Source: a phage. Taken from it: a DNA stretch of 64,000 bases. A program made the translations under genes and the position numbers. Position 1 is the first letter of the stretch; every line of letters begins with the position of its first letter. Positions 1,100 to 63,408 of this stretch are shown piece by piece. Below the pieces are notes generated by a model. The model did not search any database. It saw nothing but the letters and a program-made list of their open reading frames with translations, and was not told the DNA's origin. The stretch lies in sequence record PZ452583.1; one strand, 5' to 3'.

Positions 1100-1140
1100 T
1101 TTCTAATCTCCGTAATTCTGTATCAGTAGTTGATAGTTGT

Positions 1141-1170
1141 ATAGTACCACAGTATGCTTTGGTTGTAAAC
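1141..1170 (-). promoter_or_regulatory. early sigma70-type promoter upstream of motA
   Basis: minus strand GTTTAC (+1165-1170), 18-nt spacer ending TGG, TACTAT (+1141-1146); AT-rich region upstream; conserved leader downstream. Confidence 0.6.
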
Positions 1171-1199
1171 CGTTTTGTGAAAAAATTTTAAAATAAAAA

Positions 1200-1219
1200 G
1201 GGAGAGCCGAGGCTCTCCC
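1200..1219 (-). terminator. intrinsic terminator-like hairpin
   Basis: GGGAGAGCC/GGCTCTCCC stem followed on the minus strand by a U-run (CTTTTTATTTT). Confidence 0.6.
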
Positions 1220-1224
1220 TAAAA

Positions 1225-1374
1225 TTACTGCATGACTGTGATAACTGTCATGATAACACGTTGAATTCCGAACGCAAGAAGACCTCCTGCTACGGCTGGA
1301 ACAACGCCTAAACCCGCCAGTAAAATGCTACCAGATACTAATGCAGCGCTTGTAATACCTATGAATGGACTCAT
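1225..1374 (-). CDS. small hydrophobic protein (49 aa)
   Basis: ATG overlaps TGA of gene 52 (ATGA); product MSPFIGITSAALVSGSILLAGLGVV... is membrane-like; too short for ORF track. Confidence 0.4.
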   Translation of the reverse strand: MSPFIGITSAALVSGSILLAGLGVVPAVAGGLLAFGIQRVIMTVITVMQ

Positions 1375-2699
1375 TTGATTTCCTCTAAATCTTTGGTGTA
1401 TTCTGTAACTACATCAGTAGTTTTCCAATATTCGTTTTCTTCTTTTTTGGCTTTAGCTTCTTCAGCAAGTTTCTTTGCTTCATCGGAAGTCATATGAAAA
1501 ATATTCATTCCAACTAGTTTATCAACATAAGAAGAATACATATCGATTTTCGAAAGTTCTTCGGTCAGTTCTTTACGAGTTTTACCCTGTACAACAATTT
1601 CACCTGAAATTACTTTCTTAATGAAATGTGCCTTGGCAAAAGCTAAACGAAAAGCTGACTCAGTTTCTTTAATTTTATTATCAATTCGTTTTTGGACATA
1701 AGTTTTACGAACTTCAACAAAGTCTTTGATTAAATCAACTACGTTATCGTAAACTTGTAGCTTTCCTTTCTCATTAATAACCGTAATATTCTGAGAACGA
1801 CGCTCAATCAACCCGAAGTCTTTCATAATTTTTGCATGGCGTTCTTCTTCATTATCGCTCAAAGAATATTCTTTACGGAATTTAACTTTAAAGCCAAAAC
1901 CATGCTCACCACAAGCATCATCCCATGTAATGAAGCCTTTATCTTCAAGTGGGTCTAAGATTTTACTCACATAAGTTTCACGATCATACTTATACGGAAT
2001 CTCAGTGATATGCATTTGAGTTCGTGAAGTAAACTTATATGTTCCACGAATTTCATATTGCCCATCAATTTCAACGACTTCACCACGAAATTCTGGGAAT
2101 TCTACCTTCGGTTTAGTTACTTTCTTTCCTTGAAGAGCTTGTAGTACAGCTTTCTTGACAGAAGAAACACTATGAGGAAGAATGTAAGTTGCATAACCAG
2201 TTGCAATACCGGAAACGCCATTAAGAAGAACAGTAGGAATAATAGGCAAATAGAAAGCAGGCGGAATGTGTTCTTTATCTTGATGTACCGGAGCATATTC
2301 AGTATCTTTATATACGTTATAGAAATTTTTACTTACACGAGCAAAAATATAACGACTTGCCGCTGCCTTTTGAACAGTACGAGAACCAAAGTTTCCTTGA
2401 CCATCTAACAGAGGAAAATTATTATTCCAAGTGTTAGCCATCAAAGCACCTGCGTCTTGCGCAGAGTTTTCACCATGATGATATCCAAGGTCCGCTACAC
2501 CACCTGCAATAGAAGCGAGTTTGTGAAACTTATCTTTATTTCCTCGTGCCAAATCAAGAGCTCGAGCAATAACAAATCGTTGAACTGGCTTAAATCCATC
2601 AATCATATTTGGAATGGCACGATTTTCAACCGTGTACATAGCATAAGCCAATGCTTCATTATCAATGATACTTTTTAAATCGCGATTATTCAGTTGCAT
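1371..2699 (-). CDS. 52: DNA topoisomerase II medium subunit gp52
   Basis: 442 aa as T4 gp52; GyrA-like N-terminal region; motA-52 synteny. Confidence 0.93.
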   Translation of the reverse strand: MQLNNRDLKSIIDNEALAYAMYTVENRAIPNMIDGFKPVQRFVIARALDLARGNKDKFHKLASIAGGVADLGYHHGENSAQDAGALMANTWNNNFPLLDGQGNFGSRTVQKAAASRYIFARVSKNFYNVYKDTEYAPVHQDKEHIPPAFYLPIIPTVLLNGVSGIATGYATYILPHSVSSVKKAVLQALQGKKVTKPKVEFPEFRGEVVEIDGQYEIRGTYKFTSRTQMHITEIPYKYDRETYVSKILDPLEDKGFITWDDACGEHGFGFKVKFRKEYSLSDNEEERHAKIMKDFGLIERRSQNITVINEKGKLQVYDNVVDLIKDFVEVRKTYVQKRIDNKIKETESAFRLAFAKAHFIKKVISGEIVVQGKTRKELTEELSKIDMYSSYVDKLVGMNIFHMTSDEAKKLAEEAKAKKEENEYWKTTDVVTEYTKDLEEIK

Positions 2700-2703
2700 A
2701 AAT

Positions 2704-2844
2704 TTACCATACTAGTGAATGTAGTGCCATAATAACATCAGAAATGAAAAGCACGACTTGAATTAATCCGAACATTACTCCATAATATAGTGCTACTAAT
2801 AAAGTAGCAAGGGCTAATGAATAGCCCAAGATTTTCTTAATCAT
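2704..2844 (-). CDS. small membrane protein (46 aa)
   Basis: short ORF MIKKILGYSLALATLLVALYYGVMF... ending just before the gene 52 start; occupies the T4 52.1 position. Confidence 0.4.
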   Translation of the reverse strand: MIKKILGYSLALATLLVALYYGVMFGLIQVVLFISDVIMALHSLVW

Positions 2845-2995
2845 TAGTAGATAACAACACAAATGTTAAATATGCACACATACCCTGAGCTAAAGCTTGC
2901 GAAAACACACTGCTGGCATCAATACAGATAGTTAAAACACATGCTACTATCCAACAAATAAATGAAATAACTCCTAATAATTTTGCAATATTCAT
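2837..2995 (-). CDS. small membrane protein (52 aa), possibly the ac-position protein
   Basis: ATG at 2993-2995 with SD GAGGAAAAT; hydrophobic; lies between stp and 52 where T4 has ac. Confidence 0.45.
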   Translation of the reverse strand: MNIAKLLGVISFICWIVACVLTICIDASSVFSQALAQGMCAYLTFVLLSTND

Positions 2996-3002
2996 ATTTT
3001 CC

Positions 3003-3083
3003 TCACTGGCGTCCGAAGACGCCTTTAGTTTTAAGATTATTACGATAGAACTGCATCACATGTTCGTTGTGGAAATTACTCAT
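3003..3083 (-). CDS. stp: Stp peptide (26 aa)
   Basis: translates to [26 protein letters not shown], which matches T4 Stp as I recall it; start overlaps ndd stop (TAATG). Confidence 0.8.
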
Positions 3084-3526
3084 TAATATGCCTGCAAAAC
3101 GAATTTAAAGTTATCAGCCAACATACGGTTCATTTCTTCAAGTGTTTGATACTCAGAATGATGATTACGAGTAAACGCCAAAGCTAACTGACCTTTACCA
3201 AATCCTGTCGTCAGAGGTTTCATCTTAGAAGCAGGCAGATAAAATACTGTGTATGGAACATTGTTATTTGCAATAGTACGCGCAAGTTGAGACCGGCGTT
3301 GACGAATATGACTTAGAACTGCGCTGAATCCTTGCTTAGAACGCTGATTACCCACATAAAATCGTGCGGATACGCATGAACCATCGAATTCATTTACTAA
3401 AAAGTAAAATCCAGGTTTAGATAAAATATCTTTATGCGGAGTTCCTAAAAACCATTCACCGCCCTTGATTGTACCAATAACAGTAGCTCCTGCATTATTC
3501 AGATCAGTAACAGTCATGTATTTCAT
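3083..3526 (-). CDS. ndd: Ndd, nucleoid disruption protein
   Basis: start placed at [18 protein letters not shown]... with SD GAGGAAAT; sequence recognisably Ndd; ORF track extends 18 codons upstream. Confidence 0.85.
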
Positions 3527-3584
3527 ATTAATTTCCTCTAAATTATTTTCTACTCCAAGGCCGCATGAATACGCGGCCATTAAA

Positions 3585-3800
3585 TTAATCGTCGCAGTCG
3601 ACGCTCAATTCCCAAAACTCTTCTACGGTATAAGTTTCAGTATCATTTTCAATACAGAAACGTTCATTACTGTTATTTGCTAAAGTAGCATTAACTGTCG
3701 GTTTCTCGCTAGTGCTCTTAAGAGGTGAAATACGAATTAACTGATCACCGTTATCTAAACAGAAAATTTCACCAACTTTTACATCTTTAAAGATTTTCAT
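3585..3800 (-). CDS. hypothetical protein (71 aa)
   Basis: ATG 3798-3800 with SD GAGGTGAATT. Confidence 0.5.
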
Positions 3801-3808
3801 AATTCACC

Positions 3809-3916
3809 TCAAGGAGTATAAAATCCAAATGCAGTTGTTGACCATCCCATCCAATATGGAAAATTTGCGCCAATGTAAAACATAAGAATATAAAACCAAA
3901 TGTTTAGTAAATTCAT
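3809..3916 (-). CDS. small hydrophobic peptide (35 aa)
   Basis: ATG overlaps stop of upstream ORF (TAATG); MNLLNIWFYILMFYIGANF... Confidence 0.3.
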   Translation of the reverse strand: MNLLNIWFYILMFYIGANFPYWMGWSTTAFGFYTP

Positions 3917-4113
3917 TATTTTACACCATTCCAAATTGTTTCAACTACGGATTTTAAACCATTTTGATGAATATCCATTCCGACTACCGCCATCAAATAG
4001 ATTCCAACTACAACTGAACCTAAGGCAAAAATCAGCATGAAAATGAATAAAGCCGGAAAAATATTATCGAAAAACCATTCAATAAATGTAAAAGCACTGC
4101 GTTTACGCTTCAT
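3916..4113 (-). CDS. small membrane protein (65 aa)
   Basis: start moved to ATG 4111-4113 preceded by SD GAGGAAAAT; one transmembrane-like segment. Confidence 0.5.
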   Translation of the reverse strand: MKRKRSAFTFIEWFFDNIFPALFIFMLIFALGSVVVGIYLMAVVGMDIHQNGLKSVVETIWNGVK

Positions 4114-4120
4114 ATTTTCC

Positions 4121-4234
4121 TCACATAAATCCAAAGTAAACGTTTAATACATCAATCATTAAAACGATTGGGAATATACTCAAAACTACTAGTATTATAA
4201 CTACATTCCATATAGCTTTAACAATCTTTTTCAT
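4121..4234 (-). CDS. small membrane protein (37 aa)
   Basis: true start MKKIVKAIW... after SD GGAGGAA; ORF-track extension is translated 5-prime leader. Confidence 0.5.
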   Translation of the reverse strand: MKKIVKAIWNVVIILVVLSIFPIVLMIDVLNVYFGFM

Positions 4235-4262
4235 TTTCTGTTCCTCCGTAGTTGATAGGGTA

Positions 4263-4292
4263 ATAGTACCACGGAAGAACAGTCTTGTAAAC
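4263..4292 (-). promoter_or_regulatory. early promoter plus conserved leader
   Basis: GTTTAC (+4287-4292), 18-nt spacer ending TGG, TACTAT (+4263-4268); leader CCCTATCAACTACGGAGGAACAGAAA then ATG. Confidence 0.55.
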
Positions 4293-4477
4293 AACTTTTT
4301 TAAAAATATTCGTAATAAATGTGAATACCAACTACTACCGCTGAAACCTGTGCAACCCACCACGCGCAAGCAATAAGTACAGAATTCAAAATTTTCATAA
4401 TAACCTCATCACAAAAGTAAATGTTAAACAAATTAATGGAATACTAATTAACCAAACAAAACACCACCATAATGAAC

Positions 4478-4741
4478 TCATAGTTCAATCTCAGCGATTT
4501 TCATTTCATTATTGTTAATAGCATTTTTAAGACTATCCGAAAGAATTACATTCCAGTGGTCATTCATATGACCATTAACTAAGCGTGTAATTTCTTCGGG
4601 AGTTGAAAAATAAGGCTGATCAGACTCCCAATGCGATAATCCTAAGCGAGTATAAATCATGCCTTCATCATCGCTAGAATATTCAACTGACACAAACTCA
4701 TCAGTTATTTTATGTTTAGCGTAATAAAATTTAAATTTCAT
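4478..4741 (-). CDS. hypothetical protein (87 aa)
   Basis: ATG 4739-4741 with SD GGAGAATAAA; track start is a TTG four codons upstream. Confidence 0.55.
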   Translation of the reverse strand: MKFKFYYAKHKITDEFVSVEYSSDDEGMIYTRLGLSHWESDQPYFSTPEEITRLVNGHMNDHWNVILSDSLKNAINNNEMKIAEIEL

Positions 4742-4778
4742 TTTATTCTCCAAATCCGTATCAGTAGTTGATAGTTGT

Positions 4779-4808
4779 ATAGTACCACGGTCCTTGTGGT
4801 ATGTAAAC
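4779..4808 (-). promoter_or_regulatory. early promoter plus conserved leader
   Basis: GTTTAC (+4803-4808), 18-nt spacer ending TGG, TACTAT (+4779-4784); AT-rich region upstream. Confidence 0.55.
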
Positions 4809-4826
4809 TGTTTTGTGAAAAAATTT

Positions 4827-5384
4827 TTAAATGGAAAGATACCATCCGTTGTAGTTGCTTTTTCTTACAACCTTACGAAGGTCTTCTCTGTCACCGATGA
4901 ACTTCGGAGTGTACTGGATGACACCTGGATGAATTTCTTTAGTGTTGAATATAATTATACAGTCAGCGACTTGATGATTTAGAATGGGCCCTAGATTTAT
5001 TCCAGAACCATATGGATACTCTCCGCTGCATCCTGTTGTTACCGAAATCCAACGTGAGTCAGTTTGATGTGTCTTAACTTCTACGCGAAGCCCACAGTAT
5101 TTTGGATGCGCCAATACATCCCATGCATATGTGTACGGATCATCGACATCTTCTTGACCTTTATTAACATACCCGCTTAACCAATCTGCTACAAAAAACT
5201 CTGCGTACACAGCGATACGACATCTTTCGATAACTTCTGCCTTATCCTGGTTCGGGTTTTGTTTTAAAGAGTATCTTGCTGTATCAGCAATTTTGACCTT
5301 CATTTCATTGGTTAAATCGCTGTTCGATAGAGTAAATGTCGGAATCTGAAATAGTCTCTGCAAACCCGGATTCGTTTTCTGCAT
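4827..5384 (-). CDS. denB: DenB, endonuclease IV
   Basis: 185 aa as T4 DenB; between ndd and rIIB as in T4. Confidence 0.8.
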   Translation of the reverse strand: MQKTNPGLQRLFQIPTFTLSNSDLTNEMKVKIADTARYSLKQNPNQDKAEVIERCRIAVYAEFFVADWLSGYVNKGQEDVDDPYTYAWDVLAHPKYCGLRVEVKTHQTDSRWISVTTGCSGEYPYGSGINLGPILNHQVADCIIIFNTKEIHPGVIQYTPKFIGDREDLRKVVRKSNYNGWYLSI

Positions 5385-5430
5385 TTAAACTTTCCTTTAT
5401 GTCGGAATCATAATTTCTCTTAAAACAAAA

Positions 5431-5442
5431 GGGCCGAAGCCC
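5431..5442 (-). terminator. GGGC-UUCG-GCCC tetraloop hairpin
   Basis: GC stem with UUCG loop on minus strand, flanked by A/T runs on both sides. Confidence 0.55.
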
Positions 5443-5447
5443 TTATT

Positions 5448-5642
5448 TTATTTGAATTGTGCGATTCTTTTCTCTAGACACTCAGCATAAGATTTCATTG
5501 AGATGAACTGTGAAAGCAGCAGTTCTTGCTCAACTGCACTAACCGTTAGAAACTTTGTGCTTTCTAAAAATTTGCTCAGTGCATTAATTTTGAGCATTAA
5601 TTGATCGTATTCTTCTTTTACTCGTGCTTGATAACCTAACAT
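5448..5642 (-). CDS. hypothetical protein (64 aa)
   Basis: ATG 5640-5642 with SD AAGGAAAAT. Confidence 0.5.
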   Translation of the reverse strand: MLGYQARVKEEYDQLMLKINALSKFLESTKFLTVSAVEQELLLSQFISMKSYAECLEKRIAQFK

Positions 5643-5662
5643 AATTTTCCTTAATATGATAA

Positions 5663-5674
5663 GGGCCGAAGCCC
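5663..5674 (-). terminator. tetraloop hairpin immediately after rIIB stop
   Basis: GGGCUUCGGCCC on minus strand; weak U-tract, so may be a stability element and not a strong terminator. Confidence 0.45.
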
Positions 5675-6613
5675 TTATTTAAATTGTTCAGTAACGTCTT
5701 CAACTACTTCGTATTGGCAGGTACGCATTTTAGCATCGTTGTAATCAATCGGAATTGATACTACATCACGTGGATGTACTTTAACTTTTACAACTCGGCT
5801 GGTTGAACTGCCAAAGTGACGAATATAAGATTTAGAACACACATGCAGACCACGAGAACAAGTTTGTGTATCATCGTCATTCACACGAGTACGCGGCATT
5901 TTAACTACTTTACCAGGACTGTTATCAAAGGTGTTTGAGTGACAGTCAAAGTAGTTGTCACGAACTACTTTCCAAGCATAGAAGTAACCATCTTCTGTAA
6001 TTTCAATATCGTTTGCTACCAAGAAATCAAAGAGTCGAGATACCGCTTTCTGGCTTGGGTTTTCCAGCAGATTTTCCAAGAACGGAAAATAAAATTCAAA
6101 GTTTTCACCTTTTTCCATCGAATCGAGAATACGATCAACTAAACCAGACCGTAATTCGATATTTTGATAGAACAAGCTTCCGCCTTCAATTCGAACATCG
6201 CCGGAAATATATTTTTCAACAGCGCGACGAACATTAATTTTTTGTGCCGCTTCTTCCAACTTATCTGCTACAAGCAGATTAAGAATTTCCTGGAAGTTTG
6301 AATGAGTATTAGGAGTTGCGTTATAAGTTACACCGTCAACAGTAATTGAAATGAATTTTTTAGATGCATTCCAAATAATGTCAGATTTAGCAACTGGAGC
6401 AATAACTGCATCGCTATTAACTTTAATTGTAATATCACCGCTAATAGTAACTTTAGAGCGTTTAGCTTCTTCAGCATTTTTCAAAACACGACGAATTGTG
6501 TCAACCGATACACCTTGCCAATCAGCCAATTCCTGTTGGGTGTAATTACCACTTGAATACAGCTTAACAATTTCAGCTTGTTCGTTTTTGGTCAGGCATT
6601 TAATATTGTACAT
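5675..6613 (-). CDS. rIIB: rIIB protein
   Basis: 312 aa as T4 rIIB; adjacent to rIIA. Confidence 0.9.
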   Translation of the reverse strand: MYNIKCLTKNEQAEIVKLYSSGNYTQQELADWQGVSVDTIRRVLKNAEEAKRSKVTISGDITIKVNSDAVIAPVAKSDIIWNASKKFISITVDGVTYNATPNTHSNFQEILNLLVADKLEEAAQKINVRRAVEKYISGDVRIEGGSLFYQNIELRSGLVDRILDSMEKGENFEFYFPFLENLLENPSQKAVSRLFDFLVANDIEITEDGYFYAWKVVRDNYFDCHSNTFDNSPGKVVKMPRTRVNDDDTQTCSRGLHVCSKSYIRHFGSSTSRVVKVKVHPRDVVSIPIDYNDAKMRTCQYEVVEDVTEQFK

Positions 6614-6624
6614 AATTTTCCTTA

Positions 6625-9041: not shown

Positions 9042-9071
9042 ATTATACCACATCCTTGTGGTAAAGTAAAC
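9042..9071 (-). promoter_or_regulatory. early promoter upstream of rIIA.1/rIIA
   Basis: GTTTAC (+9066-9071), 18-nt spacer ending TGG, TATAAT (+9042-9047); -35 overlaps gene 39 stop. Confidence 0.6.
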
Positions 9072-12430: not shown

Positions 12431-12700
12431 TTAATTGAACAGTGGAGCGATACGTTTCAGAAGAGTAGCAGCACCTTTAGCGAATTTTACATCATGAAAA
12501 ACAGTTTCTTCTTCTGTAACAACACGAGCTTTAATGTTTTCACAATCCCAATTTTTGCGAACAATCTTCAAAAGCTGCAGTAAATCTTTACATTCAGCAA
12601 TATCGATAACACATCCACGAGAATCTTCCATTATCGCACGATAACCGTAAGCCATACCATAATCATTGAAAGATTGCTCGATGATAATTAAATTTTCCAT
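12431..12700 (-). CDS. hypothetical protein (89 aa)
   Basis: start MENLIIIEQ... after SD GGAGAA; ORF-track extension is translated leader. Confidence 0.5.
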   Translation of the reverse strand: MENLIIIEQSFNDYGMAYGYRAIMEDSRGCVIDIAECKDLLQLLKIVRKNWDCENIKARVVTEEETVFHDVKFAKGAATLLKRIAPLFN

Positions 12701-12750
12701 TTTATTCTCCAAGTTTTTCTGTATCAGTAGTTGATATTGATATAGTACCA
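12701..12750 (-). promoter_or_regulatory. variant copy of the conserved early leader cassette
   Basis: TGG-TACTAT and leader present but no GTTTAC -35 at the expected spacing; flanked by inverted repeat ATCAGTAGTTGAT/ATCAACTACTGAT. Confidence 0.35.
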
Positions 12751-12809
12751 TAATCAACTACTGATGTATATAGTTTTATGAAAAAAAAAAATTTAAACTT
12801 TATGCAAAT

Positions 12810-13229
12810 TTATGCTAAAGCTGCTTCGCACCATTTTTTAATTTGGAATTCAGGAACTACCATGAACTGGCCTGCAAAAACAATATTGTAGAGCTTGACA
12901 CCATCTTCTACCCAACGGTCCGAAATAAAACCAGCGACTTGATTCGTTGTCCATGGAGTTCCATCTGTTGCCGCCGCAATTGTGAATTTATGGTCTTTTA
13001 CAACTAAAACTGAAGAACAAAGTTTCCATTTAAATGCGCGTTCTTCTGGCTCAATGAACTGACTTGAGACATAACCAATGTTACCATCAGCGTCACGAAC
13101 TTTAACCTCGTTACGACCAAAAACTGGATCACTTACAGAAAGAACTTCAACCAGCTTTCCTGCAACTTTAGAACGAGAAGCAACGGATACATATACGTAA
13201 TCACCAGTAGAGAGATTTACAATATTCAT
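12810..13229 (-). CDS. hypothetical protein (139 aa), member of a tandem paralog trio
   Basis: shares C-terminal motif with the next two ORFs (G-x-x-S/T-D-x-W-V/I-E-D-G-x-x-L-x-N-I/V-V). Confidence 0.55.
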   Translation of the reverse strand: MNIVNLSTGDYVYVSVASRSKVAGKLVEVLSVSDPVFGRNEVKVRDADGNIGYVSSQFIEPEERAFKWKLCSSVLVVKDHKFTIAAATDGTPWTTNQVAGFISDRWVEDGVKLYNIVFAGQFMVVPEFQIKKWCEAALA

Positions 13230-13238
13230 AATAATTCC

Positions 13239-13712
13239 TTAAGCTTTACGAGGAGAAGCATAACGAGTGATTTCAGATTCTTCAACAACCCGGAAGTCAC
13301 CTAAGAATACGATATTGTAGAGCTTTTCACCATCTTCAACCCATTGGTCTGTGATGAAGCCACACATCCTATCAGTTTTACTTGGACCAGCGAAATCATC
13401 AATATAATCGAATTCTTCATCAGTTACAAATTCAACGCCTTTACACAACGCCCATTTAAATTGTGTATTAGACTCAGTGGATTCAACTTCTTCAACAGAA
13501 GCAAAATGAGAGCTAACACGAGTTTCCAGAAATTTAGGACTTACGTAAGCGTACTGAGTTTCAGTTTTTCCAGAACTAGGAATGATTCGAACTTTAACTT
13601 CTTTAACACGACCAGTACCATTAGTACGAAGTCCTACCACTTCAACTAGACGACCTGCAGCTTTAGAACGAGATGCAGACGATACACGCTTAATTTCACC
13701 GATAGTAATCAT
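13239..13712 (-). CDS. hypothetical protein (about 157 aa), tandem paralog
   Basis: start moved to MITIGEIKR... because a promoter -10 overlaps the ORF-track start; N-terminus aligns with 12810-13229. Confidence 0.5.
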   Translation of the reverse strand: MITIGEIKRVSSASRSKAAGRLVEVVGLRTNGTGRVKEVKVRIIPSSGKTETQYAYVSPKFLETRVSSHFASVEEVESTESNTQFKWALCKGVEFVTDEEFDYIDDFAGPSKTDRMCGFITDQWVEDGEKLYNIVFLGDFRVVEESEITRYASPRKA

Positions 13713-14232: not shown

Positions 14233-14745
14233 TTAATCTAAAGTAATAAAGCCTTTTAATTCGGCATGTGATTTGCGGAACATTACTTGGTGCCCGCCAA
14301 TGATAACTTGATCATCTGGCACTTCATAAATCGCAATGTACATTCCACGATCTTTTAAGTCTTCACGCTCTTCTCGAGTAAACCATCTCATTATATCATA
14401 TTCACTAGCGAAAGCAAAATGATATAATGCAATAAACCACAATGGAATATAATTTTCAATTCGTGAATAATCTTTATTCCATTTAGTTTTAATAGCATCA
14501 TTAGCATTTTCAACTAATAACTTATCATCGTGTGGAATAGGAATACTTTCATGGCTTTCATAATCATTGCTATGATGATGAAATGATGATGAATTAATAC
14601 CGCAAAATTTTAGCCAAGTTCGAGTTTTCATAGAATCAAATCCACGATAAGGAGTTGATTGAACGCATAACTCTTGCCTAATTTTCATTATACCACTATC
14701 ATCATTTAATGCGCTAAACGATGATTCAACACGATAAATTTTCAT
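14233..14745 (-). CDS. hypothetical protein (about 170 aa)
   Basis: ATG 14743-14745 with SD GAGGATAATAAA. Confidence 0.5.
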   Translation of the reverse strand: MKIYRVESSFSALNDDSGIMKIRQELCVQSTPYRGFDSMKTRTWLKFCGINSSSFHHHSNDYESHESIPIPHDDKLLVENANDAIKTKWNKDYSRIENYIPLWFIALYHFAFASEYDIMRWFTREEREDLKDRGMYIAIYEVPDDQVIIGGHQVMFRKSHAELKGFITLD

Positions 14746-14772
14746 TTTATTATCCTCAGTAGCTATGGTGTT

Positions 14773-14802
14773 ATAATACCACAACTGACCGAGGAAGTAA
14801 AC
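14773..14802 (-). promoter_or_regulatory. early promoter
   Basis: GTTTAC (+14797-14802), 18-nt spacer ending TGG, TATTAT (+14773-14778). Confidence 0.55.
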
Positions 14803-23053: not shown

Positions 23054-24393
<1,340 letters not shown>

Positions 24394-24418
24394 TATATCA
24401 TCCTCAGCAATTTATTTT

Positions 24419-24448
24419 ATAATACCATAACAAGCTGAGAAAGTAAAC
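24419..24448 (-). promoter_or_regulatory. early promoter for the 186-aa ORF
   Basis: GTTTAC (+24443-24448), 18-nt spacer ending TGG, TATTAT (+24419-24424). Confidence 0.55.
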
Positions 24449-24483
24449 AAATTTATGATAAATATTAATTTAAAGGAGGACAT

Positions 24484-26246: not shown

Positions 26247-26540
26247 TTACTCACCTACCACTTCAGCGATGATATTTTTGTTATTAAAGTTTTTATCGCA
26301 ATACAGAACATAATTATACTGCATTACACCACCAGACTTAAGCTGTTTTTGCACTTCAGCTTTCATTTCAGGACGATCGCGCTCAACAATATTCATAATA
26401 TCCGCTTCAATTTGAGTTTCAACCTCAGTCTGATCCGCAGTCATAGACCATTCACACAAGTCTTTATCATATCCTGCCATAGCAGGCTGAGCAGCACAAG
26501 AAGACAAAGTAAAAATTGTAGCAAAGATAATTTTTTTCAT
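26247..26540 (-). CDS. sp: Sp (spackle)-like periplasmic protein
   Basis: 97 aa as T4 Sp; signal peptide MKKIIFATIFTLSSCAAQPAMA; between 61 and dmd; SD GAGGAGAT. Confidence 0.7.
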   Translation of the reverse strand: MKKIIFATIFTLSSCAAQPAMAGYDKDLCEWSMTADQTEVETQIEADIMNIVERDRPEMKAEVQKQLKSGGVMQYNYVLYCDKNFNNKNIIAEVVGE

Positions 26541-26600
26541 GATAATCTCCTCAGTAGTTTATGTTTATATAGTATATCAATTTCCAACAAAAGTAAACAG

Positions 26601-26858
26601 TTATTTTAAAACTTCTGCGTAATCACATGTTACAAACTGTTTCTCTAGCTTAACGATTTTACGAAAATACCTTTTATACTGACGAATCTGCCTCTTCGTA
26701 GGACGTACAGCAAACTTAATAAATTCCACTCGACCAAATGGAGGACTTTCTTCTGCTGGAATATCTAACACCAATTCCCACGTATCTGCAATAAGTGCTT
26801 TGAATTGAGTATTTTTCCTGACGTTATACGGAGTAGGTTTAAATAAAACAATATGCAT
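26601..26858 (-). CDS. hypothetical basic protein (about 85 aa)
   Basis: ATG 26856-26858 with SD GAGGATAAT, 1 nt after dmd stop; track start is an upstream TTG. Confidence 0.45.
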   Translation of the reverse strand: MHIVLFKPTPYNVRKNTQFKALIADTWELVLDIPAEESPPFGRVEFIKFAVRPTKRQIRQYKRYFRKIVKLEKQFVTCDYAEVLK

Positions 26859-30056: not shown

Positions 30057-30133
30057 TCATTTTTTCCATAGGCATCATTATATTTTCCTCACTGGTTAAA
30101 GATAGAGTAATTATAACACAATAAATTTAGGCA

Positions 30134-32518: not shown

Positions 32519-32770
32519 TTAAAACTTAACAAATAACTTTAAAGCATCTTCAGTTTTAATTCCTTTTCTTACACCCATAACAGAAATTGGCTGTGACTGA
32601 AATTTTCCTTTACCATTATAAATTTCTAATCCAGTAACCATTCCATTTTGTTCTATAATACCGTAAGTGTTACCTTCATTTTCAAATTCTTTAACTTTAA
32701 AGAGTTTATTAGCTTTTTCTGCGTTAACAACTTTTAAATTTTGAATAAAATTAGTTTGAATATTTTTCAT
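32519..32770 (-). CDS. hypothetical protein (83 aa)
   Basis: start MKNIQTNFIQ... after SD GGAGGAA; ORF-track extension is translated leader. Confidence 0.5.
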   Translation of the reverse strand: MKNIQTNFIQNLKVVNAEKANKLFKVKEFENEGNTYGIIEQNGMVTGLEIYNGKGKFQSQPISVMGVRKGIKTEDALKLFVKF

Positions 32771-32798
32771 TTTGTGTTCCTCCGTAGTTGATAGTTGT

Positions 32799-32828
32799 AT
32801 AGTACCATGGAAGAACAGTCTTGTAAAC
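32799..32828 (-). promoter_or_regulatory. early promoter plus conserved leader
   Basis: GTTTAC (+32823-32828), 18-nt spacer ending TGG, TACTAT (+32799-32804). Confidence 0.55.
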
Positions 32829-32916
32829 AGTTTTGTGAAAAAATTTTTAATGAATTCAAAGGGTCCAGAATCATCTATTTTTCCTAAGTATAGATTTATA
32901 TTACTTGTATGAAAAA

Positions 32917-32932
32917 GGGACCCGGAGGTCCC
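32917..32932 (-). terminator. terminator hairpin after gene 43
   Basis: GGGACC-UCCG-GGUCCC stem-loop followed by U-run on minus strand. Confidence 0.55.
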
Positions 32933-32945
32933 TAGATTTATTCTA

Positions 32946-35722: not shown

Positions 35723-35959
35723 TTAAATTTCTATTGTACGACGCGATATAACGGACTTGCCATCTGTATTTGTGGTTTTGATAATCGCATGAAATGCGCG
35801 TTGGCGTGGGTAAACTAATCGTTGGAATTCTTTTTGGAATTCTATTTGTTTATCTTCCGGGAGGTCAAAAACCAGTTGGGTAGAAGACAGACCATATGTT
35901 TGTTTTAGATTTTCGAATATTAGAAAAGCTTCGGTAAACTGAATCTCTGATTGTGTCAT
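35723..35959 (-). CDS. hypothetical protein (about 78 aa) between regA and 43
   Basis: ATG 35957-35959 with SD AAGGT; track start lies inside regA. Confidence 0.4.
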   Translation of the reverse strand: MTQSEIQFTEAFLIFENLKQTYGLSSTQLVFDLPEDKQIEFQKEFQRLVYPRQRAFHAIIKTTNTDGKSVISRRTIEI

Positions 35960-35969
35960 ATAATTTACC

Positions 35970-55194: not shown

Positions 55195-55224
55195 ATTATA
55201 CCACATCCTTGTGGCAAAGTAAAC
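55195..55224 (-). promoter_or_regulatory. early promoter
   Basis: GTTTAC (+55219-55224), 18-nt spacer ending TGG, TATAAT (+55195-55200); -35 overlaps upstream gene stop. Confidence 0.6.
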
Positions 55225-57539: not shown

Positions 57540-57594
57540 AATAATCTCAATTAAAAGGGCTTAGAACCATTATACCATCCTTGGTATAAAGCGG

Positions 57595-58122
57595 TTATGC
57601 GAGTACCGTCTTTAACCGTTCTTCAAACTTCCGAAGAGTATTCTGGCGTTCAGCTCTTTGCTTTTTGTAAGTTTCAATACGCTCTGAAATGAGAGTGTAT
57701 CGTTCATTTACTGATTCTTTCATAAAATCAGGAATTTCACGAGAAGCTTTAATCTCGTCAAATTTATCAATAACAGCTTGCTCTTCAGCAATTAAGTTAT
57801 CATACATCAAAATATCTTTCTTGATGAACTCAATATCTTCTTGAGTTACACGAGATAATTTAGATGCTTTATCCTTTTTGTACTGTTCGTTAGTATCACG
57901 AGACCAGTGTAATGTACGATTTTTATTCGTATTCTTGTAAATTTCTACAATACCAATCTCATCGATAATAACGATCCAATTCCAACGGGATTTGTAAATT
58001 TGTCCTCCATCAACCGTGATTTCACCACCGATTGAGACATCATTAAAGAACTTGCTTTGAGCTTCAGATTTAAATTTACCATCATTGTAGTTTACCAAGT
58101 TGAAAATATCTTTAGCATTCAT
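57595..58122 (-). CDS. hypothetical protein (about 175 aa)
   Basis: start MNAKDIF... after SD GGAGGAACAG; ORF-track extension is translated leader. Confidence 0.5.
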   Translation of the reverse strand: MNAKDIFNLVNYNDGKFKSEAQSKFFNDVSIGGEITVDGGQIYKSRWNWIVIIDEIGIVEIYKNTNKNRTLHWSRDTNEQYKKDKASKLSRVTQEDIEFIKKDILMYDNLIAEEQAVIDKFDEIKASREIPDFMKESVNERYTLISERIETYKKQRAERQNTLRKFEERLKTVLA

Positions 58123-58150
58123 TTTCTGTTCCTCCGTAGTTGATAGTTGT

Positions 58151-58180
58151 ATAATACCACAGAGGAACAGTCTTGTAAAC
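58151..58180 (-). promoter_or_regulatory. early promoter plus conserved leader
   Basis: GTTTAC (+58175-58180), 18-nt spacer ending TGG, TATTAT (+58151-58156). Confidence 0.55.
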
Positions 58181-58182
58181 AA

Positions 58183-58485
58183 CTAAAAGAAACTTCTTTC
58201 ACAATTTTTTCCACTGAACCAAGCGCTCACTGCTTTCTTAGTCTCAGGAGCAGTGTTATCCATAAACCATTCAAAGGCAGCCTTTTTATGATTCTGGAGG
58301 GCTTCTCGGGCTTTAATCTGCTCACGGTCTATTAACACTAACATATGAGCCTTTCTTGTCACCAAGGGCTTCTTATGATTTTTTGAATACTCCCAATCAT
58401 TTGTCCAACGCATTGTCGTTGCGAACTGATGAACCGCGTCTTTAATTTTAGTTTCATAAATTTCACGAGCTTTTGAGTATAACAT
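58183..58485 (-). CDS. hypothetical protein (about 100 aa)
   Basis: ATG 58483-58485 with SD GGAGGT. Confidence 0.5.
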   Translation of the reverse strand: MLYSKAREIYETKIKDAVHQFATTMRWTNDWEYSKNHKKPLVTRKAHMLVLIDREQIKAREALQNHKKAAFEWFMDNTAPETKKAVSAWFSGKNCERSFF

Positions 58486-58586
58486 CTTTACCTCCATTTA
58501 CTAGTTTAATTCTAGTCATCTTTTTAATGGCAGTCCATATAATCTATTTCTGAACTGCCTTTTTGTCTTAGAAGTCCTCTTATGAA

Positions 58587-59555
58587 TTATTTCAGAAGAG
58601 TAACCTCAGCGATTTCTTCCCAACCGTTTTTGTCGGTCATAATAAAGTCAGCAAGATAAAGCGCAGTACGCAGTGAAACATTGCGTAAACGATTAACATT
58701 GACTTTCATCCATGATAATGCTTTATAAGTTTCTTCATCAGAAAGACCGCGCTTTTGCATCATGTCAGTTGAAAGAATAACATCTTCAACCCTGACCATA
58801 ATTTCTTCATTAGTGTGAACACCCAAATCCAAATAAACTGAGCGGGACACTAATGCTTGTAAATGTGGAGCAAGTTTAGTACCACGGTCTAATTCGCGGT
58901 CAATGTCAACGTTTGTGATAAAAACAATCGTTCCTTTAAATTCAAACTCACGCTCAATGCCTTTTTCTTCTAAGTAAGAAGATGCGGTGCTCCAGCAGAC
59001 TTTACGGGTCTCTCCGGTGTCCAGAGCAGCTTTCAGAAGATTAAGAATGTCCATATCAGAGAAAACATCCACATCATCAATCAAAAGGACAGAATTCTCT
59101 TCACGATTATTCCAAAGCTGTTCATAAAGACCGATACCAGAGATTTTACCATTAATGCTTTTATATTCAATGTATCCAATATCATTTGCTTTATTTAAAG
59201 CTTTATCTAAAGAATATGTTTTACCTATACCTGCCGCGCCAGAGATAATTAATGAACGAATATTTCCATTAATAATACCATTCGTCATCATTCCCATAAC
59301 ATTAAATCTTTTATTAATGCGGGTTTTCATATCTTCATATGATTCTTTAACTTCTTCAACTTTTACACCATCATATGAAATGTCTGATTTGTAAACCCAA
59401 ACACCGCGACGTTTACCATCAATTTCAACAAAAACTTTACCATCTCCTTGTGCATCTACCGGAGCATTATCTGGGAACCATTCACCTAAGAGCTCAAAAG
59501 TTCCAGAGATTTCTTTACCGAAGTAGATACCCTTATTGATAGTTACAGTTTTCAT
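58587..59555 (-). CDS. P-loop NTPase (about 322 aa)
   Basis: Walker A GAAGIGKT and Walker B-like LLIDDVD; start MKTVTINKG... after SD GGAGAA. Confidence 0.6.
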   Translation of the reverse strand: MKTVTINKGIYFGKEISGTFELLGEWFPDNAPVDAQGDGKVFVEIDGKRRGVWVYKSDISYDGVKVEEVKESYEDMKTRINKRFNVMGMMTNGIINGNIRSLIISGAAGIGKTYSLDKALNKANDIGYIEYKSINGKISGIGLYEQLWNNREENSVLLIDDVDVFSDMDILNLLKAALDTGETRKVCWSTASSYLEEKGIEREFEFKGTIVFITNVDIDRELDRGTKLAPHLQALVSRSVYLDLGVHTNEEIMVRVEDVILSTDMMQKRGLSDEETYKALSWMKVNVNRLRNVSLRTALYLADFIMTDKNGWEEIAEVTLLK

Positions 59556-59589
59556 TTTATTCTCCAAATCCGTATCAGTTGATAGTTGT

Positions 59590-59619
59590 ATAGTACCATA
59601 AAGCTTTATGCTTGTAAAC
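59590..59619 (-). promoter_or_regulatory. early promoter plus conserved leader
   Basis: GTTTAC (+59614-59619), 18-nt spacer ending TGG, TACTAT (+59590-59595). Confidence 0.55.
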
Positions 59620-59649
59620 AACTTTGTGAAAAATTTTTGAAATAAAAAA

Positions 59650-59667
59650 GGGAGCCCGAAGGCTCCC
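59650..59667 (-). terminator. intrinsic terminator
   Basis: GGGAGCC-UUCG-GGCUCCC hairpin followed on minus strand by UUUUUUAUUU. Confidence 0.7.
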
Positions 59668-59669
59668 TA

Positions 59670-60683: not shown

Positions 60684-61141
60684 TCAGCCTTATATTCAAT
60701 AACAGGACATACTTTAGCTTTACGAGCTTTTAAAAATTCAACGATAACCGATTTCTTGGGTTGAATAGGAGGTAAACCTTTATACGCCCTATCAATATTT
60801 TCTACGTGTAAAGCATAATCCTTTTTCCATTTATAATCTTTATATTTTTCACGCAAATGTGCAGGAATAACAAATGAACCGATAATAAGTAAAACAACCA
60901 AAAGCGCAAGTATAAATGCTGATGGAAGCAAAGTCCATAAACTACCAAAAATAAGCCAACGTTGTAGGCTTTCTGCACAAATAATTGTTAGCCCTACGAG
61001 TATAGCACATCCAAAAATAGAAACGAAAAATGTAGGAATGGCAATAGACCAAAAATATGCGCATAGTGTCTTAGGTCGTTGCCATTCATCGTTAAACAAT
61101 TTGAATAATTTATAGTGCCAAGAGTTTTCATTAATAATCAT
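60680..61141 (-). CDS. membrane protein (153 aa)
   Basis: three or more hydrophobic segments. Confidence 0.5.
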   Translation of the reverse strand: MIINENSWHYKLFKLFNDEWQRPKTLCAYFWSIAIPTFFVSIFGCAILVGLTIICAESLQRWLIFGSLWTLLPSAFILALLVVLLIIGSFVIPAHLREKYKDYKWKKDYALHVENIDRAYKGLPPIQPKKSVIVEFLKARKAKVCPVIEYKAE

Positions 61142-61143
61142 AA

Positions 61144-61665
61144 TTATCCTCTCATTGAAGGCGTAACAGTTGTTAAATACTTAATCATAGCTTCAGCTTC
61201 TGATTTTGATAATGAAATTTCTCCATTGTTTTGACGAATAGAAATAAAATCCGGATGACGGTCACCACCAGCTTTTAAAACACACATATAAGTATCAACT
61301 TCATCTTCAATATTTGAAATGATTGAAGCAGTTCCACATGAATGCGGTTTTTGATAAATCAATGCAGCTTTTCTTCCGCCATTTGACTGTTCATAAACTT
61401 TTAATACATCAAACAAATCACTTCTTTTATCAATAGCTAAAATGTTATTTTCATCTTCAATGTTAAATCCTTCGGATACTTCATAAAGTGTCACCCATAA
61501 ATCGCCAATATCAATAACAGCGTTCACTTTTCCATGACTTTCAAGAGCATGACAAATTTTCTTGATTTCGTCATAACTCATTTTAATAATATCATCTCCT
61601 TGAATAAGAAAGATGTCATTTTTAAATTCAACACGAATTAAACCACTTCCACTTGAAATAAACAT
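61144..61665 (-). CDS. hypothetical protein (173 aa), paralog of next ORF
   Basis: C-terminal AMIKYLTTVTPSM resembles ALKTYLDSVIPTM of 61672-62226. Confidence 0.5.
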   Translation of the reverse strand: MFISSGSGLIRVEFKNDIFLIQGDDIIKMSYDEIKKICHALESHGKVNAVIDIGDLWVTLYEVSEGFNIEDENNILAIDKRSDLFDVLKVYEQSNGGRKAALIYQKPHSCGTASIISNIEDEVDTYMCVLKAGGDRHPDFISIRQNNGEISLSKSEAEAMIKYLTTVTPSMRG

Positions 61666-61671
61666 ATTTCC

Positions 61672-62226: not shown

Positions 62227-62401
62227 TTAAAGTTTCAATATAAGAATCGAGATTTACTTTAGCTTCTTCCATAAGAGTTTTGTATTTAATCTTGTTGGCA
62301 TGTCCGGAAAAAGCTGATTCATCAATAATTGTTGATGTATGAACAGCTTTACTATACGTCTCAATTAATTCTCTTAATTTAAAAGCCTGCTCACTTGTCA
62401 T
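62216..62401 (-). CDS. hypothetical protein (61 aa)
   Basis: ORF track; ATG 62399-62401. Confidence 0.45.
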   Translation of the reverse strand: MTSEQAFKLRELIETYSKAVHTSTIIDESAFSGHANKIKYKTLMEEAKVNLDSYIETLIGK

Positions 62402-62505
62402 TACATACTCCTCTGAATCATATCAATAATGTTATTCACCAAATTATAAGTAAACATTGGGTAATTATATTGAATCATTACATACACAACAAACAAAACT
62501 TTCAT
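62401..62505 (-). CDS. small hydrophobic peptide (34 aa)
   Basis: ATG 62503-62505 with SD GGAGAAGAGA just after an early promoter; stop overlaps next start (TAATG). Confidence 0.25.
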   Translation of the reverse strand: MKVLFVVYVMIQYNYPMFTYNLVNNIIDMIQRSM

Positions 62506-62533
62506 TCTCTTCTCCTTGACAGTTGACAAGATT

Positions 62534-62563
62534 ACTATACCATAACCTTGCCAACTTGTAAAC
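62534..62563 (-). promoter_or_regulatory. early promoter
   Basis: GTTTAC (+62558-62563), 18-nt spacer ending TGG, TATAGT (+62534-62539). Confidence 0.55.
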
Positions 62564-62565
62564 CG

Positions 62566-62712
62566 TTAAATGTTGTTTTCAATAAAATTTTGAAGCTTTG
62601 TGTGAGCATCAACCATGATTTTCATTTCTTCCTTTGCGAAAGCTGTACCTCTTTCCCGAGAAGAACACTCATAGTCAGAAACTGCATTAGCATATTCTTC
62701 AATTAGTTTCAT
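62566..62712 (-). CDS. small helical protein (48 aa)
   Basis: ATG 62710-62712; MKLIEEYANAVSDYECSSRERG...; weak SD. Confidence 0.3.
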   Translation of the reverse strand: MKLIEEYANAVSDYECSSRERGTAFAKEEMKIMVDAHTKLQNFIENNI

Positions 62713-62728
62713 TAAAAACATCTGCTTT

Positions 62729-62923
62729 TCAGTTTTCATTATTCCACCTAATCATTTCAAGATATTGAACTAACTTAGCTTTAGATTTGTCCAAATCCTT
62801 TTTAGCTGCTTCTATACCGTCGTATGAATATCCTTCACAATGCTCAACTGCTAATTGGTATGAATCTATTTCAATATCATGCGCTAATTTAATGATTTTT
62901 TCAAACTGTTCGCGTGTTAGCAT
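62729..62923 (-). CDS. hypothetical protein (64 aa)
   Basis: ORF track; ATG 62921-62923. Confidence 0.45.
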   Translation of the reverse strand: MLTREQFEKIIKLAHDIEIDSYQLAVEHCEGYSYDGIEAAKKDLDKSKAKLVQYLEMIRWNNEN

Positions 62924-62925
62924 AA

Positions 62926-63165
62926 TTAAACTCTCGTATTATGATCGATAATTTCATCAAGAAACATATCTAACGCTTCTAAAGCATTATCAACTTTAGC
63001 TTCAAGTTCATCAATGCCTTTATTTGCAATGCCTGACGAAAACCAAGCAAAGTCACTAAGTTCCTCGTCTGCTTTACGAATTAAAGCTACCAATTCCTTA
63101 ATTTTATCCGCTTGTTCGATACTAATCATTATTCCACCACATATGAAAGAGAGAATATTGCACAC
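62926..63165 (-). CDS. hypothetical protein (79 aa)
   Basis: ORF track; start not checked. Confidence 0.4.
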
Positions 63166-63317
63166 GCCATGTGAGTTGCAACTTCATCACACATATTATA
63201 ACGTTTCTTAAGAAGTTCTACAAGTTCTTCACTAGTAACTTCATCCATGTCGACGAAAAAATCACCATTAATGATGACGTAGATATTTCCTTCTTGATTA
63301 AGTGCTTCAATTTTCAT
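63129..63317 (-). CDS. hypothetical protein (about 62 aa)
   Basis: ATG 63315-63317 with SD GAGGAG; track start (TTG) lies inside the promoter. Confidence 0.45.
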
Positions 63318-63345
63318 GATGTTCTCCTCTTTATCCGATGGTTGT

Positions 63346-63375
63346 ATAGTATCACAGCTCAAATGGAAAGTAAAC
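63346..63375 (-). promoter_or_regulatory. early promoter
   Basis: GTTTAC (+63370-63375), 18-nt spacer ending TGA, TACTAT (+63346-63351). Confidence 0.5.
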
Positions 63376-63390
63376 CGGTAAAATGAAAAA

Positions 63391-63408
63391 AGTCTCCCGA
63401 AGGAGACT
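63391..63408 (-). terminator. intrinsic terminator
   Basis: AGUCUCC-UUCG-GGAGACU hairpin followed on minus strand by UUUUUUCAUUUU. Confidence 0.65.

Follow-up and report, generated by a model that had tools for sequence, protein, structure and literature searches.

We examined 64,000 nt of phage DNA (sequence record PZ452583.1; the whole stretch is called the window, and positions are counted from its first letter) for a short regulatory block that recurs before several genes, and found that seven full and two partial copies of this block, all on the minus strand, form one family. The blocks are very probably paralogous copies of a T4-type early-promoter cassette, serving as promoter, as a leader targeted by the endoribonuclease RegB and as a site of recombination. 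Megablast placed the window in Tequatrovirus, the T4-like coliphages, with AR1, teqskov and vB_Eco_TB37 as top matches (97–98% identity); to T4 itself the window is about 95–98% identical. These cassettes are no novelty in the genus, having been described under two names, T4 early promoters and promoter early stem-loops (PeSLs). The chief value of the comparison lies in correct annotation, the cassettes being entry and exit points for accessory genes, many of unknown function, in T4-type genomes; it adds detail to the PeSL picture for the T4 genus and leaves the accepted view of T4 genome evolution unchanged. One detail goes beyond the published picture and may be new: in many copies an inverted repeat spans the −10 box.

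A family of near-identical early-promoter cassettes

The family was defined through a direct pattern search, because a scan with the generic sigma-70 consensus could not discriminate in DNA so rich in A and T (positions 1–6000 gave 27 sites where 22 were expected, and the sole minus-strand hits there with a TG-extended −10 box were the three cassette promoters). The 21-nt core TACTATACAACTATCAACTAC occurs on the minus strand without mismatch at 1126–1146, 4764–4784 and 32784–32804, and with one, two and three mismatches at 58136–58156, 59575–59595 and 12727–12747, respectively. Against these six matches at up to three mismatches, 100 shuffles gave none. Three more sites (4248–4268, 26554–26574 and 63331–63351) match with four to five mismatches, bringing the family to seven copies plus two partial ones (63346 and 26569; copies are named by a coordinate of the −10 box, Table 1). 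All seven places that the original prediction had listed were correct, and so were the two leader types that it had distinguished, here called A and B, to which the motA copy (1141) adds a third variant.

When aligned, the copies follow one layout: an A/T-rich upstream stretch, the −35 box GTTTACA, a 17-nt gap ending in the extended −10 element TGG, the −10 box TACTAT or TATTAT, a 15-nt core and the leader. The −35 box is GTTTACA in every copy except 12742 (ATATACA), and the partial copies carry TGA (63346) and ATA (26569) in place of TGG; the elements of an early promoter (−35 box, 17-nt gap with TGn, −10 box TAnnAT) were found in the seven copies and in both partial ones. The upstream stretch resembles AAAAATTTTTTCACAAAAC in 1141, 4779, 12742, 32799 and 59590 and does so more weakly in 4263 and 58151; from its position and composition it is read as an UP element. 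Host sigma-70 RNA polymerase would start at this unusually complete promoter (UP-like A/T stretch, GTTTACA, TGG and TACTAT), probably at the A of CTATCAAC that lies some 7 nt past the −10 box. The leader is 22–41 nt long, with a GGAG Shine–Dalgarno (SD) sequence 5–7 nt before the ATG. Its type A form, GGAGGAACA(G/C)AAA-ATG, is found in 4263, 32799 and 58151, which also have the 14-nt promoter spacer AAGACTGTTCYTCY in common and are near-identical over the whole interval from the −35 box to the ATG. The type B form, TGATAC...GGAGAATAAA-ATG, is found in 4779, 12742 and 59590, and the motA variant is TGATACAGAATTACGGAGATTAGAAA-ATG. A search of the entire window against Rfam at gathering thresholds returned no match, and the leader corresponds to no RNA family known there.

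A scan for the T4-type early promoter pattern gave 19 minus-strand matches in the window and missed copy 12742 because its −35 box is ATATAC. Seventeen sites were kept, seven with the full core, two with a partial core and eight others that served as the generic set. Over the 15 nt that follow the −10 box, mean pairwise identity was 0.84 within the family, 0.27 among the eight other early-promoter-like sites and 0.40 between family and others, so the conjecture that the copies are no more alike than generic T4 early promoters did not hold when put to the test. The family is further set apart by having TACTAT and not TATAAT, and GTTTACA and not GTTTACT. The proteins encoded downstream (MotA, Ndd.4, the products of open reading frames [ORFs] of 87, 89 and 83 aa, the last called orfX, NrdC.8 and NrdC.10) are mutually unrelated (BLASTP, all pairs E > 0.08). 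The original prediction had spoken of unrelated small genes; "unrelated" is right, but "small" does not suit MotA (211 aa), NrdC.8 (175 aa) or NrdC.10 (322 aa).

The type A leader has no stop codon in frame with its gene, and mechanically called ORFs therefore display an apparent shared N-terminal peptide, TITLSTTEEQKM, and read ...GTITLSTTEEQKM-KKIV, ...GTIQLSTTEEHKM-KNIQ and ...GIIQLSTTEEQKM-NAKD. Were the stretch coding, a common N-terminal peptide, for example a targeting signal, would be fused to different proteins, and the open frame, yielding ...TI(T/Q)LSTTEE(Q/H)KM, agrees with that. We find this hardly credible. The stretch spans the −35 box, the −10 box and the SD; a stop codon (TGA; TAG in motA) stands in the ATG frame within the leaders of motA, 4779 and 12742 (in 59590 this frame is open through the leader); T4 annotation begins ndd.4 and nrdC.8 at the ATG after GGAGG; and the sole upstream starts are TTG codons without an SD. 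The shared peptide is thus an artefact of ORF calling, as had been proposed, and should not be annotated as protein; the small ORFs behind the cassettes are independently expressed early genes.

T4 early promoters are unusually complete UP/−35/TGn/−10 promoters with "additional regions of consensus", and about 40 of them, called "uber" promoters, exist in T4 (Hinton, 2010; PMC2988021). The window copies are like them in being positional orthologues, including motA and nrdC.10, with the same elements on the same strand. T4 has all nine copies at orthologous positions, and a scan of the whole T4 genome revealed further members, outside the window, upstream of denV, e.8, trna.4 and frd.3. GenBank records dating from the 1990s annotate T4 orthologues with −35/−10 promoter signals (U76612 and X75802), and the T4 nrdC.10 site is annotated in GenBank with a terminator and "early promoter 54.4". 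Unlike the T4 early promoters as a class, the window family is one subclass, GTTTACA...TGGTACTAT-ACAACTATCAACTAC; a second subclass in the window, GTTTACT(T)...TGGTATAAT or TGGTATTAT, has unrelated sequence after the −10 box.

The GGAG of the leader may also be targeted by RegB together with ribosomal protein S1, which in T4 silences early mRNAs minutes into infection and would do the same here. In T4, 68 intergenic GGAG/GGAU motifs have been tested, and the RegB/S1 site was defined as GGAGAAUAAAA, or more loosely GGAGRAYARAA; motA is a good substrate, cut at its SD, the nrdC.8 GGAG is "moderately cleaved" and cleavage also occurs at the motB.2 GGAU (Durand et al., 2006; PMC1702504). The type B leader GGAGAATAAAA is the published optimum (11 of 11 positions of GGAGRAYARAA), holding the optimal 11-mer GGAGAAUAAAA immediately before the AUG, and GGAGAATAAAATG is exact at 4739, 12698 and 59553, in the three type B leaders. 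In a position-by-position reading the motA leader, which is the same as that of T4, matches at 10 of 11 positions, and the type A leader, the same as that of T4 nrdC.8, at 8 of 11 with a favourable GGAGG. No significant structure was predicted in the type B and motA leaders (z −0.1 to −0.5), and read-through RNA containing the promoter spacer is the only transcript in which the type A GGAG would be paired. Given that type B is the published optimum and that motA and nrdC.8 are published T4 substrates, the suggestion that the GGAG leaders are candidate RegB sites appears well founded on sequence grounds. It would also explain the conservation of the 3′ part of the leader, whose bases would act as SD, RegB/S1 site and start context together. 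Elsewhere in the window, GGATAATAAAATG lies at 14743–14755 (minus), at the start of an ORF in the T4 motB.2 position; in T4, RegB cleavage has been reported for just two GGAU motifs, that of motB.2 among them.

A PeSL is defined by an early promoter, a stem-loop, an SD and start codon at its 3′ end and a location near indels (PMC2839356; PMC4122927). PeSLs were described in RB49/phi1 (Arbiol et al., 2010; PMC2839356) and have been catalogued for PST/T4 and also for nt-1/KVP40; the PST/T4 catalogue includes the ndd.4/.5 exchange, which falls within the region of this window (Comeau et al., 2014; PMC4122927). Like PeSLs, the window cassettes combine the early-promoter consensus with a 3′ SD and start codon, their near-identical copies stand at gene boundaries of variable regions, and indels between close relatives are located at them, with modules lying between two copies. 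The PST/T4 consensus TTTACW-N17-TAYWAT fits the window copies. PeSL crossovers occur between the −10 box and the SD or ATG, where the junctions seen here at CTATCAA|, which recur immediately after the predicted start site, also fall. As to the stem-loop, an upstream hairpin is present at 1141, 59590 and 63346 and, farther off, at 32799; 4263, 32799, 58151 and 12742 have a helix that encloses the −10 box, four copies that in this respect resemble the RB49/phi1 PeSLs with their inverted repeat around the −10 box; and copy 4779 has a weak 6-bp hairpin in the spacer as its sole stem-loop. Two differences were noted: the upstream stem-loop described for PST is present in just three to four window copies, and several adjoining deletions lie at start-codon microhomology and not in the cassette core. 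There is no essential difference between PeSLs and the window cassettes, and the reading of the latter as PeSLs is upheld by anatomy and indel location, both of which fit the published definition. The hairpins had been overstated, however. Most copies were said to sit beside a GC hairpin with a UUCG loop, but a terminator-like hairpin is found upstream in only three of the seven (1141, 59590 and 32799), with loops CUCG, UUCG and UCCG at 30, 31 and 89 nt from the −35 box, respectively; none was found at 4263, 4779, 12742 or 58151. The partial copy 63346 has one with a UUCG loop. Where present (three to four copies), the GC hairpin and its T run would terminate the preceding transcription unit.

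Gene turnover and probable recombination at the cassette slots

Local BLAST aligned window positions 1–64000 to T4 (NC_000866) at 162.5–168.9 kb and then at 1–59.4 kb. Identity is 86–98% in most aligned blocks, about 77% over the 3′ end of motB, and the alignment is broken by about 20 indels or replacements. Four of the 13 indels that do not involve homing endonucleases touch the seven family cassettes, in a region with about 124 gene starts (binomial p about 0.005); the count of 13 excludes a fourteenth event, the ORF that lies between gene 43 and regA. Searches with every cassette and its flanks covered 50,697 phage records. Five of the seven slots proved polymorphic in gene content across about 500 related genomes, so that identical gene content at every boundary, which would have spoken against gene shuffling, was not what the comparison revealed.

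At the gene 43/imm.1 slot (32799), 521 records fell into three classes: orfX is present in 31 records including T2, a different 78-aa ORF of similar length in most (AR1), and no ORF in some (T4, PST and T6). The imm.1 cassette of the window and T2 is type A with a type A leader, followed by orfX, and that of T4 and AR1 is a chimera in which type A spacer and core are joined to a type B leader, with the switch point directly after CAACTAC. The T4 state appears to derive from an AR1-like state via deletion between two ATGAAAAT repeats. Outside the genus, homologues of orfX were found in Dhakavirus phages only (53–54% amino-acid identity). The homologue of the Dhakavirus IME08 lies between rI.-1 and mobD.3 (1462–1722 of its locus, L006), preceded immediately by a UUCG hairpin, GTTTAC-N17-TACTAT promoter and CTATCAACTA leader of its own; orfX thus stands directly behind a cassette with an CTATCAACTA leader in both slots, that of T2-like Tequatrovirus and that of IME08.

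Four alleles occur at the denB/ndd.6 slot (4779; window 4478–4741), with orfA and orfB in ime09, orfB in the window, orfA in T2 and neither in T4. In the window and the three other loci compared, all junctions are at start-codon TAAAATG or AATGAAA repeats, and the alleles can all be explained by putative deletions between 7–8-nt start-codon repeats. An 8-codon ORF remnant (MKIAEIEL) overlaps the ndd.6 start in the T4 slot. At the motB/cef slot (12742), the sequence varies to either side of the 115-nt cassette, which itself stands as a conserved island. The 3′ part of motB (about 12806–13524) is a replaced allele, its final 340 nt being 81–85% identical to Mosigvirus and unlike most Tequatrovirus, and the homology break, at the motB stop codon, lies on the 5′ edge of the cassette. 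Downstream of the ATG at least three states occur, of which that of T4 looks like a deletion between AAAATT repeats.

The cassette itself forms direct repeats around inserted modules at two slots. The nrdC.11/nrdC.10 slot (59590) is "empty" in the window and T4; T2 has there a 621-nt module, with an ORF annotated as ADP-ribosylase-like, between 54-nt direct repeats of hairpin, upstream stretch and −35 box, and YUEEL01 has a 480-nt module with two ORFs, one for a DUF4031 protein, between 26-nt direct repeats of −10 box and core. At the motA slot (1141), ES19 and a few others carry a 345-nt one-ORF module bounded by a 36-nt repeat, 92% identical, of −10 box, core and leader. In these three modules the repeat spacing equals the indel size within 2 nt (within 1 nt for T2 and YUEEL01).

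With 50–100 nt of near-identical sequence at many gene boundaries on one strand, the copies are substrates for homologous or short-homology recombination. Modules between two copies, or just behind one, could be inserted, deleted or replaced with the expression signals undisturbed, and exchange of variants among copies would keep the copies alike. Such cassette-mediated module exchange is the published PeSL mechanism. A set of 18 type A cassettes was assembled from the window, T4, T2, T6, ime09, YUEEL01 and IMG/VR contigs. Variants of the ndd.4 (4263) and nrdC.8 (58151) loci, which lie more than 50 kb apart, are swapped in two IMG/VR genomes (four loci; discriminator TACC/ACAA, −10 box TACTAT/TATTAT, spacer TTCC/CTCT). 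This swap suggests gene conversion between distant copies, which would account for the near-identity better than constraint alone. A related case, as cited in PMC4122927, is the shuffling of T-even internal-protein (IP) genes behind a conserved promoter and leader (Repoila et al., 1994). As summarized there, it is similar in that unrelated small genes are swapped between conserved 5′ regulatory blocks and differs in concerning the ipI–III region, another locus outside the window.

Functional convergence alone would give a similar family with no role in recombination, as any strong early promoter followed by a ribosome-binding site (RBS) must look alike. All early promoters are under constraint at the −35 box, TGn and −10 box, the GGAGAAUAAAA leader has to serve as SD and RegB/S1 site at once, and many indel junctions are at start-codon microhomology and not in the core. 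Nevertheless, we consider this unlikely, given that the other early-promoter-like sites of the window, several of them with T4 counterparts, are unrelated after the −10 box (0.27 vs 0.84), that the three type A copies have a common 14-nt spacer, which sigma-70 does not read sequence-specifically, that variants are swapped between distant loci, that the imm.1 cassette is chimeric, and that direct repeats of the cassette surround modules at a spacing equal to the indel size. Less likely still, and by a good deal, is the reading of the block as an autonomous mobile element that copies itself before genes, in the manner of a homing site or miniature transposon. Copies are many and near-identical, and some border inserted genes, as would be expected of such an element, but they occupy the same positions in T4 and in the window phage, and all of them lie on one strand, along transcription. 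In the junctions that were read we noticed neither target-site duplications nor element-specific terminal inverted repeats, the modules (ADP-ribosylase-like, DUF4031 and small proteins of unknown function) have no transposase-like ORFs, and the homing-endonuclease indels of the window lie elsewhere. We considered and discarded each of these three rivals: a genuine common signal peptide, a transposon-like element and convergence on function alone.

Several observations weigh against the view that the blocks are paralogous cassettes acting in expression and recombination. A number of cassette-adjacent deletions lie outside the conserved core, at 6–8-nt microhomology at or near start codons (the ndd.6, cef and imm.1 slots in T4, orfB in T2 and orfA in the window; TAAAATG, AATGAAA, ATGAAAAT or AAAATT), and in half of the cassette-adjacent events the junction is at a short repeat of the start-codon/SD region. 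Gene-sized indels at the promoterless boundaries 39.1/39.2, dexA.2/dda and nrdH/55.8 have short-repeat junctions of the same kind; recombination would therefore have several substrates, of which the cassette is one. The nrdC.8 slot and the mobD.5 partial copy are invariant within the genus (at the mobD.5 slot, query coverage is 80% or more in 499 of 503 records), and the enrichment of indels at cassettes is based on few events. Finally, regB lies outside the window (at T4 62.3 kb, the window ending near T4 59.4 kb), and, unlike the published RegB/S1 sites, the putative target leaders are known here from their sequence. In this genome, modules bounded by expression signals seem as a rule to be rearranged in register, with the early-promoter cassette as the longest such repeat.

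Inverted repeats around the −10 box

RNA folds of the interval from the −35 box to the ATG contain strong helices that enclose the −10 box. The type A helix, of 15 bp, pairs the spacer and TGGT with ACUAC and GGAGGAACAG (folding free energy −22.7 kcal/mol and z −4.0 in 4263, −13.9 and −2.7 in 32799, −24.5 and −4.5 in 58151), and in 12742 the spacer pairs with the leader core (−20.2 kcal/mol, z −4.8). Inverted repeats of 13–17 bp, formed by a spacer reverse-complementary to the leader or SD of its own promoter, span 4238–4282, 32775–32817, 58126–58170, 12723–12765 and 14753–14795 (minus), and the same layout around the −10 box is present at the promoter-like sites 14773, 13756, 24419 and 22076. 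The duplex energy between a spacer and its own leader beat all of 5000 permutations both in the window (−10.3 vs −6.7 kcal/mol, 17 promoter matches) and in T4 (−9.6 vs −6.25 kcal/mol, 31 promoter matches). Different promoters with different sequences would keep the same pairing, which may be regarded as a form of covariation among paralogues. The chimeric imm.1 cassette of T4 lacks the pairing (−3.7 vs −14.5 kcal/mol in the window). Across the 18 type A cassettes, most stem changes are C/T opposite G and so preserve pairing without being compensatory, and a few break end pairs; the scan of type A leaders in IMG/VR returned nine stretches, too few for a helix covariation test. A strong inverted repeat is present at none of four promoters with an adjacent terminator and at 7 of 14 without one, which is not a significant difference (hypergeometric p about 0.11, calculated by hand).

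Both arms of the helix are present only in RNA read through from upstream, and read-through into 4263 and 58151 is to be expected because no terminator lies upstream there. The 5′ arm is upstream of the predicted start and the 3′ arm covers the SD or AUG in 4263, 32799, 58151, 14773 and 24419. In 12742 the SD is outside the helix and the 3′ arm does not cover it, and about half of the inverted repeats likewise leave the SD outside. It is possible, though rather doubtful, that the repeat acts as a start-dependent gate, in which read-through RNA would hide the SD and the RegB site and RNA from the cassette's own promoter, carrying the 3′ arm only, would be open. If this were true, a gate dependent on the transcript start would be built into the shuffled module, and a leader swap at the core, as in the T4/AR1 imm.1 cassette, would break it. 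In the T4 genes e, soc, 49 and I-TevI, which have late promoters, the RBS is sequestered in long read-through RNA and freed in RNA from an internal promoter (PMC3014915). The type A copies and 14773 are similar in having a 15–17-bp helix with its 5′ arm upstream of the start and its 3′ arm including the SD, and differ in that the promoters are early ones and that the arrangement is known from sequence and predicted folds. We found no description in the literature of an RBS-sequestering hairpin for early promoters of the T4 group.

Two other features of promoter spacers were observed. A small hairpin, CCACAAGGAYSGTGG, is common to the spacers of three early promoters, at 9042–9070, 55195–55223 and 4779–4807 (minus). 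The spacer of 59590 is a perfect 14-nt palindrome, and an identical spacer is found outside the window in T4, in the promoter at 146.8 kb beside frd.3.

Cassette coordinates and other differences from T4

Table 1. Positions and sequence elements of the seven cassettes and two partial members
Feature	Span	Strand	Upstream hairpin	−35 box	−10 box	Core or sequence after −10 box	Leader	ATG	Remarks
motA cassette	1097..1220	minus	terminator hairpin 1199–1220, AGGGAGAGC-CUCG-GCUCUCCCU and T run	1164–1170	TGG and TACTAT, 1141–1149	1126–1140	TGATACAGAATTACGGAGATTAGAAA	1099	A/T-rich upstream; T4 orthologue at 163629–163649
ndd.4 cassette (type A)	4232..4320	minus	no upstream terminator	4286–4292	TACTAT, 4263–4268	CTATCAACTAC; discriminator variant TACCC	GGAGGAACAGAAA	4234	15-bp inverted repeat 4268–4282/4238–4252 around −10 box and predicted start site
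Cassette 4779 (type B), denB/87-aa ORF interval	4739..4840	minus	no upstream GC hairpin	4802–4808	4779–4784	core present	TGATACGGATTTGGAGAATAAA	4741	
Cassette 12742 (type B variant), motB/89-aa ORF, upstream of cef	12698..12806	minus		ATATAC	12742–12747	ATCAATATCAACTAC	TGATACAGAAAAACTTGGAGAATAAA	12700	promoter spacer 12753–12765 is the reverse complement of leader core 12723–12735
Cassette 32799 (type A), downstream of gene 43	32768..32933	minus	terminator hairpin 32916–32933 (UCCG loop), then 89 nt spacer DNA	32822–32828	32799–32804	core present	GGAGGAACACAAA	32770	gene behind is the 83-aa orfX (32519–32770), preceding imm.1
nrdC.8 cassette (type A)	58120..58210	minus	no terminator	58174–58180	TATTAT, 58151–58156	core present	GGAGGAACAGAAA	58122	15-bp inverted repeat 58156–58170/58126–58140
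nrdC.10 cassette (type B)	59553..59668	minus	terminator hairpin 59649–59668, AGGGAGCC-UUCG-GGCUCCCU and T run	59613–59619	59590–59595	core short by 3 nt	GGAGAATAAA	59555	A/T-rich upstream; palindromic spacer CATAAAGCTTTATG
Partial member, mobD.5	63315..63408	minus	hairpin 63391–63408 (UUCG)	GTTTACT	TACTAT, 63346–63351	ACAACCATCGG...	AGAGGAGAACATC	63317	
Partial member, 97-aa ORF at T4 gene sp position	26538..26630	minus			TACTAT, 26569–26574	ATAAACATAAACTAC	TGAGGAGATTATC	26540	

In gene order the window runs from arn.3, motA, gene 52, ndd, denB, rIIB and rIIA up to the nrdC and mobD genes, and every early gene in it is on the minus strand. The T4 segments with mobA and 60.1, segF, mobB, mobC and the nrdD I-TevII intron are missing from this phage (window 9419–9471, 22429–22475, 43816–43841, 48616–48636 and 49912–49915), and with the loss of the mobA/60.1 segment genes 60 and 39 may be contiguous. 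Other sequence replaces the segA/beta-glucosyltransferase region (30045–30990) and the mobD region (60685–61646). An additional ORF of about 75 aa (MTQSEIQFTEAF...), which T4 does not have, lies at about 35730–35960 (minus), flanked by the stop codon of regA and the hairpin that precedes gene 43. The interval between dam and gene 61 holds a 536-nt segment (23921–24456, minus) that is not in T4 and carries one ORF and its own early promoter (−10 box at 24419–24424); its junction is in the A/T-rich stretch upstream of that promoter, and the segment resembles a "moron" without a second cassette copy.

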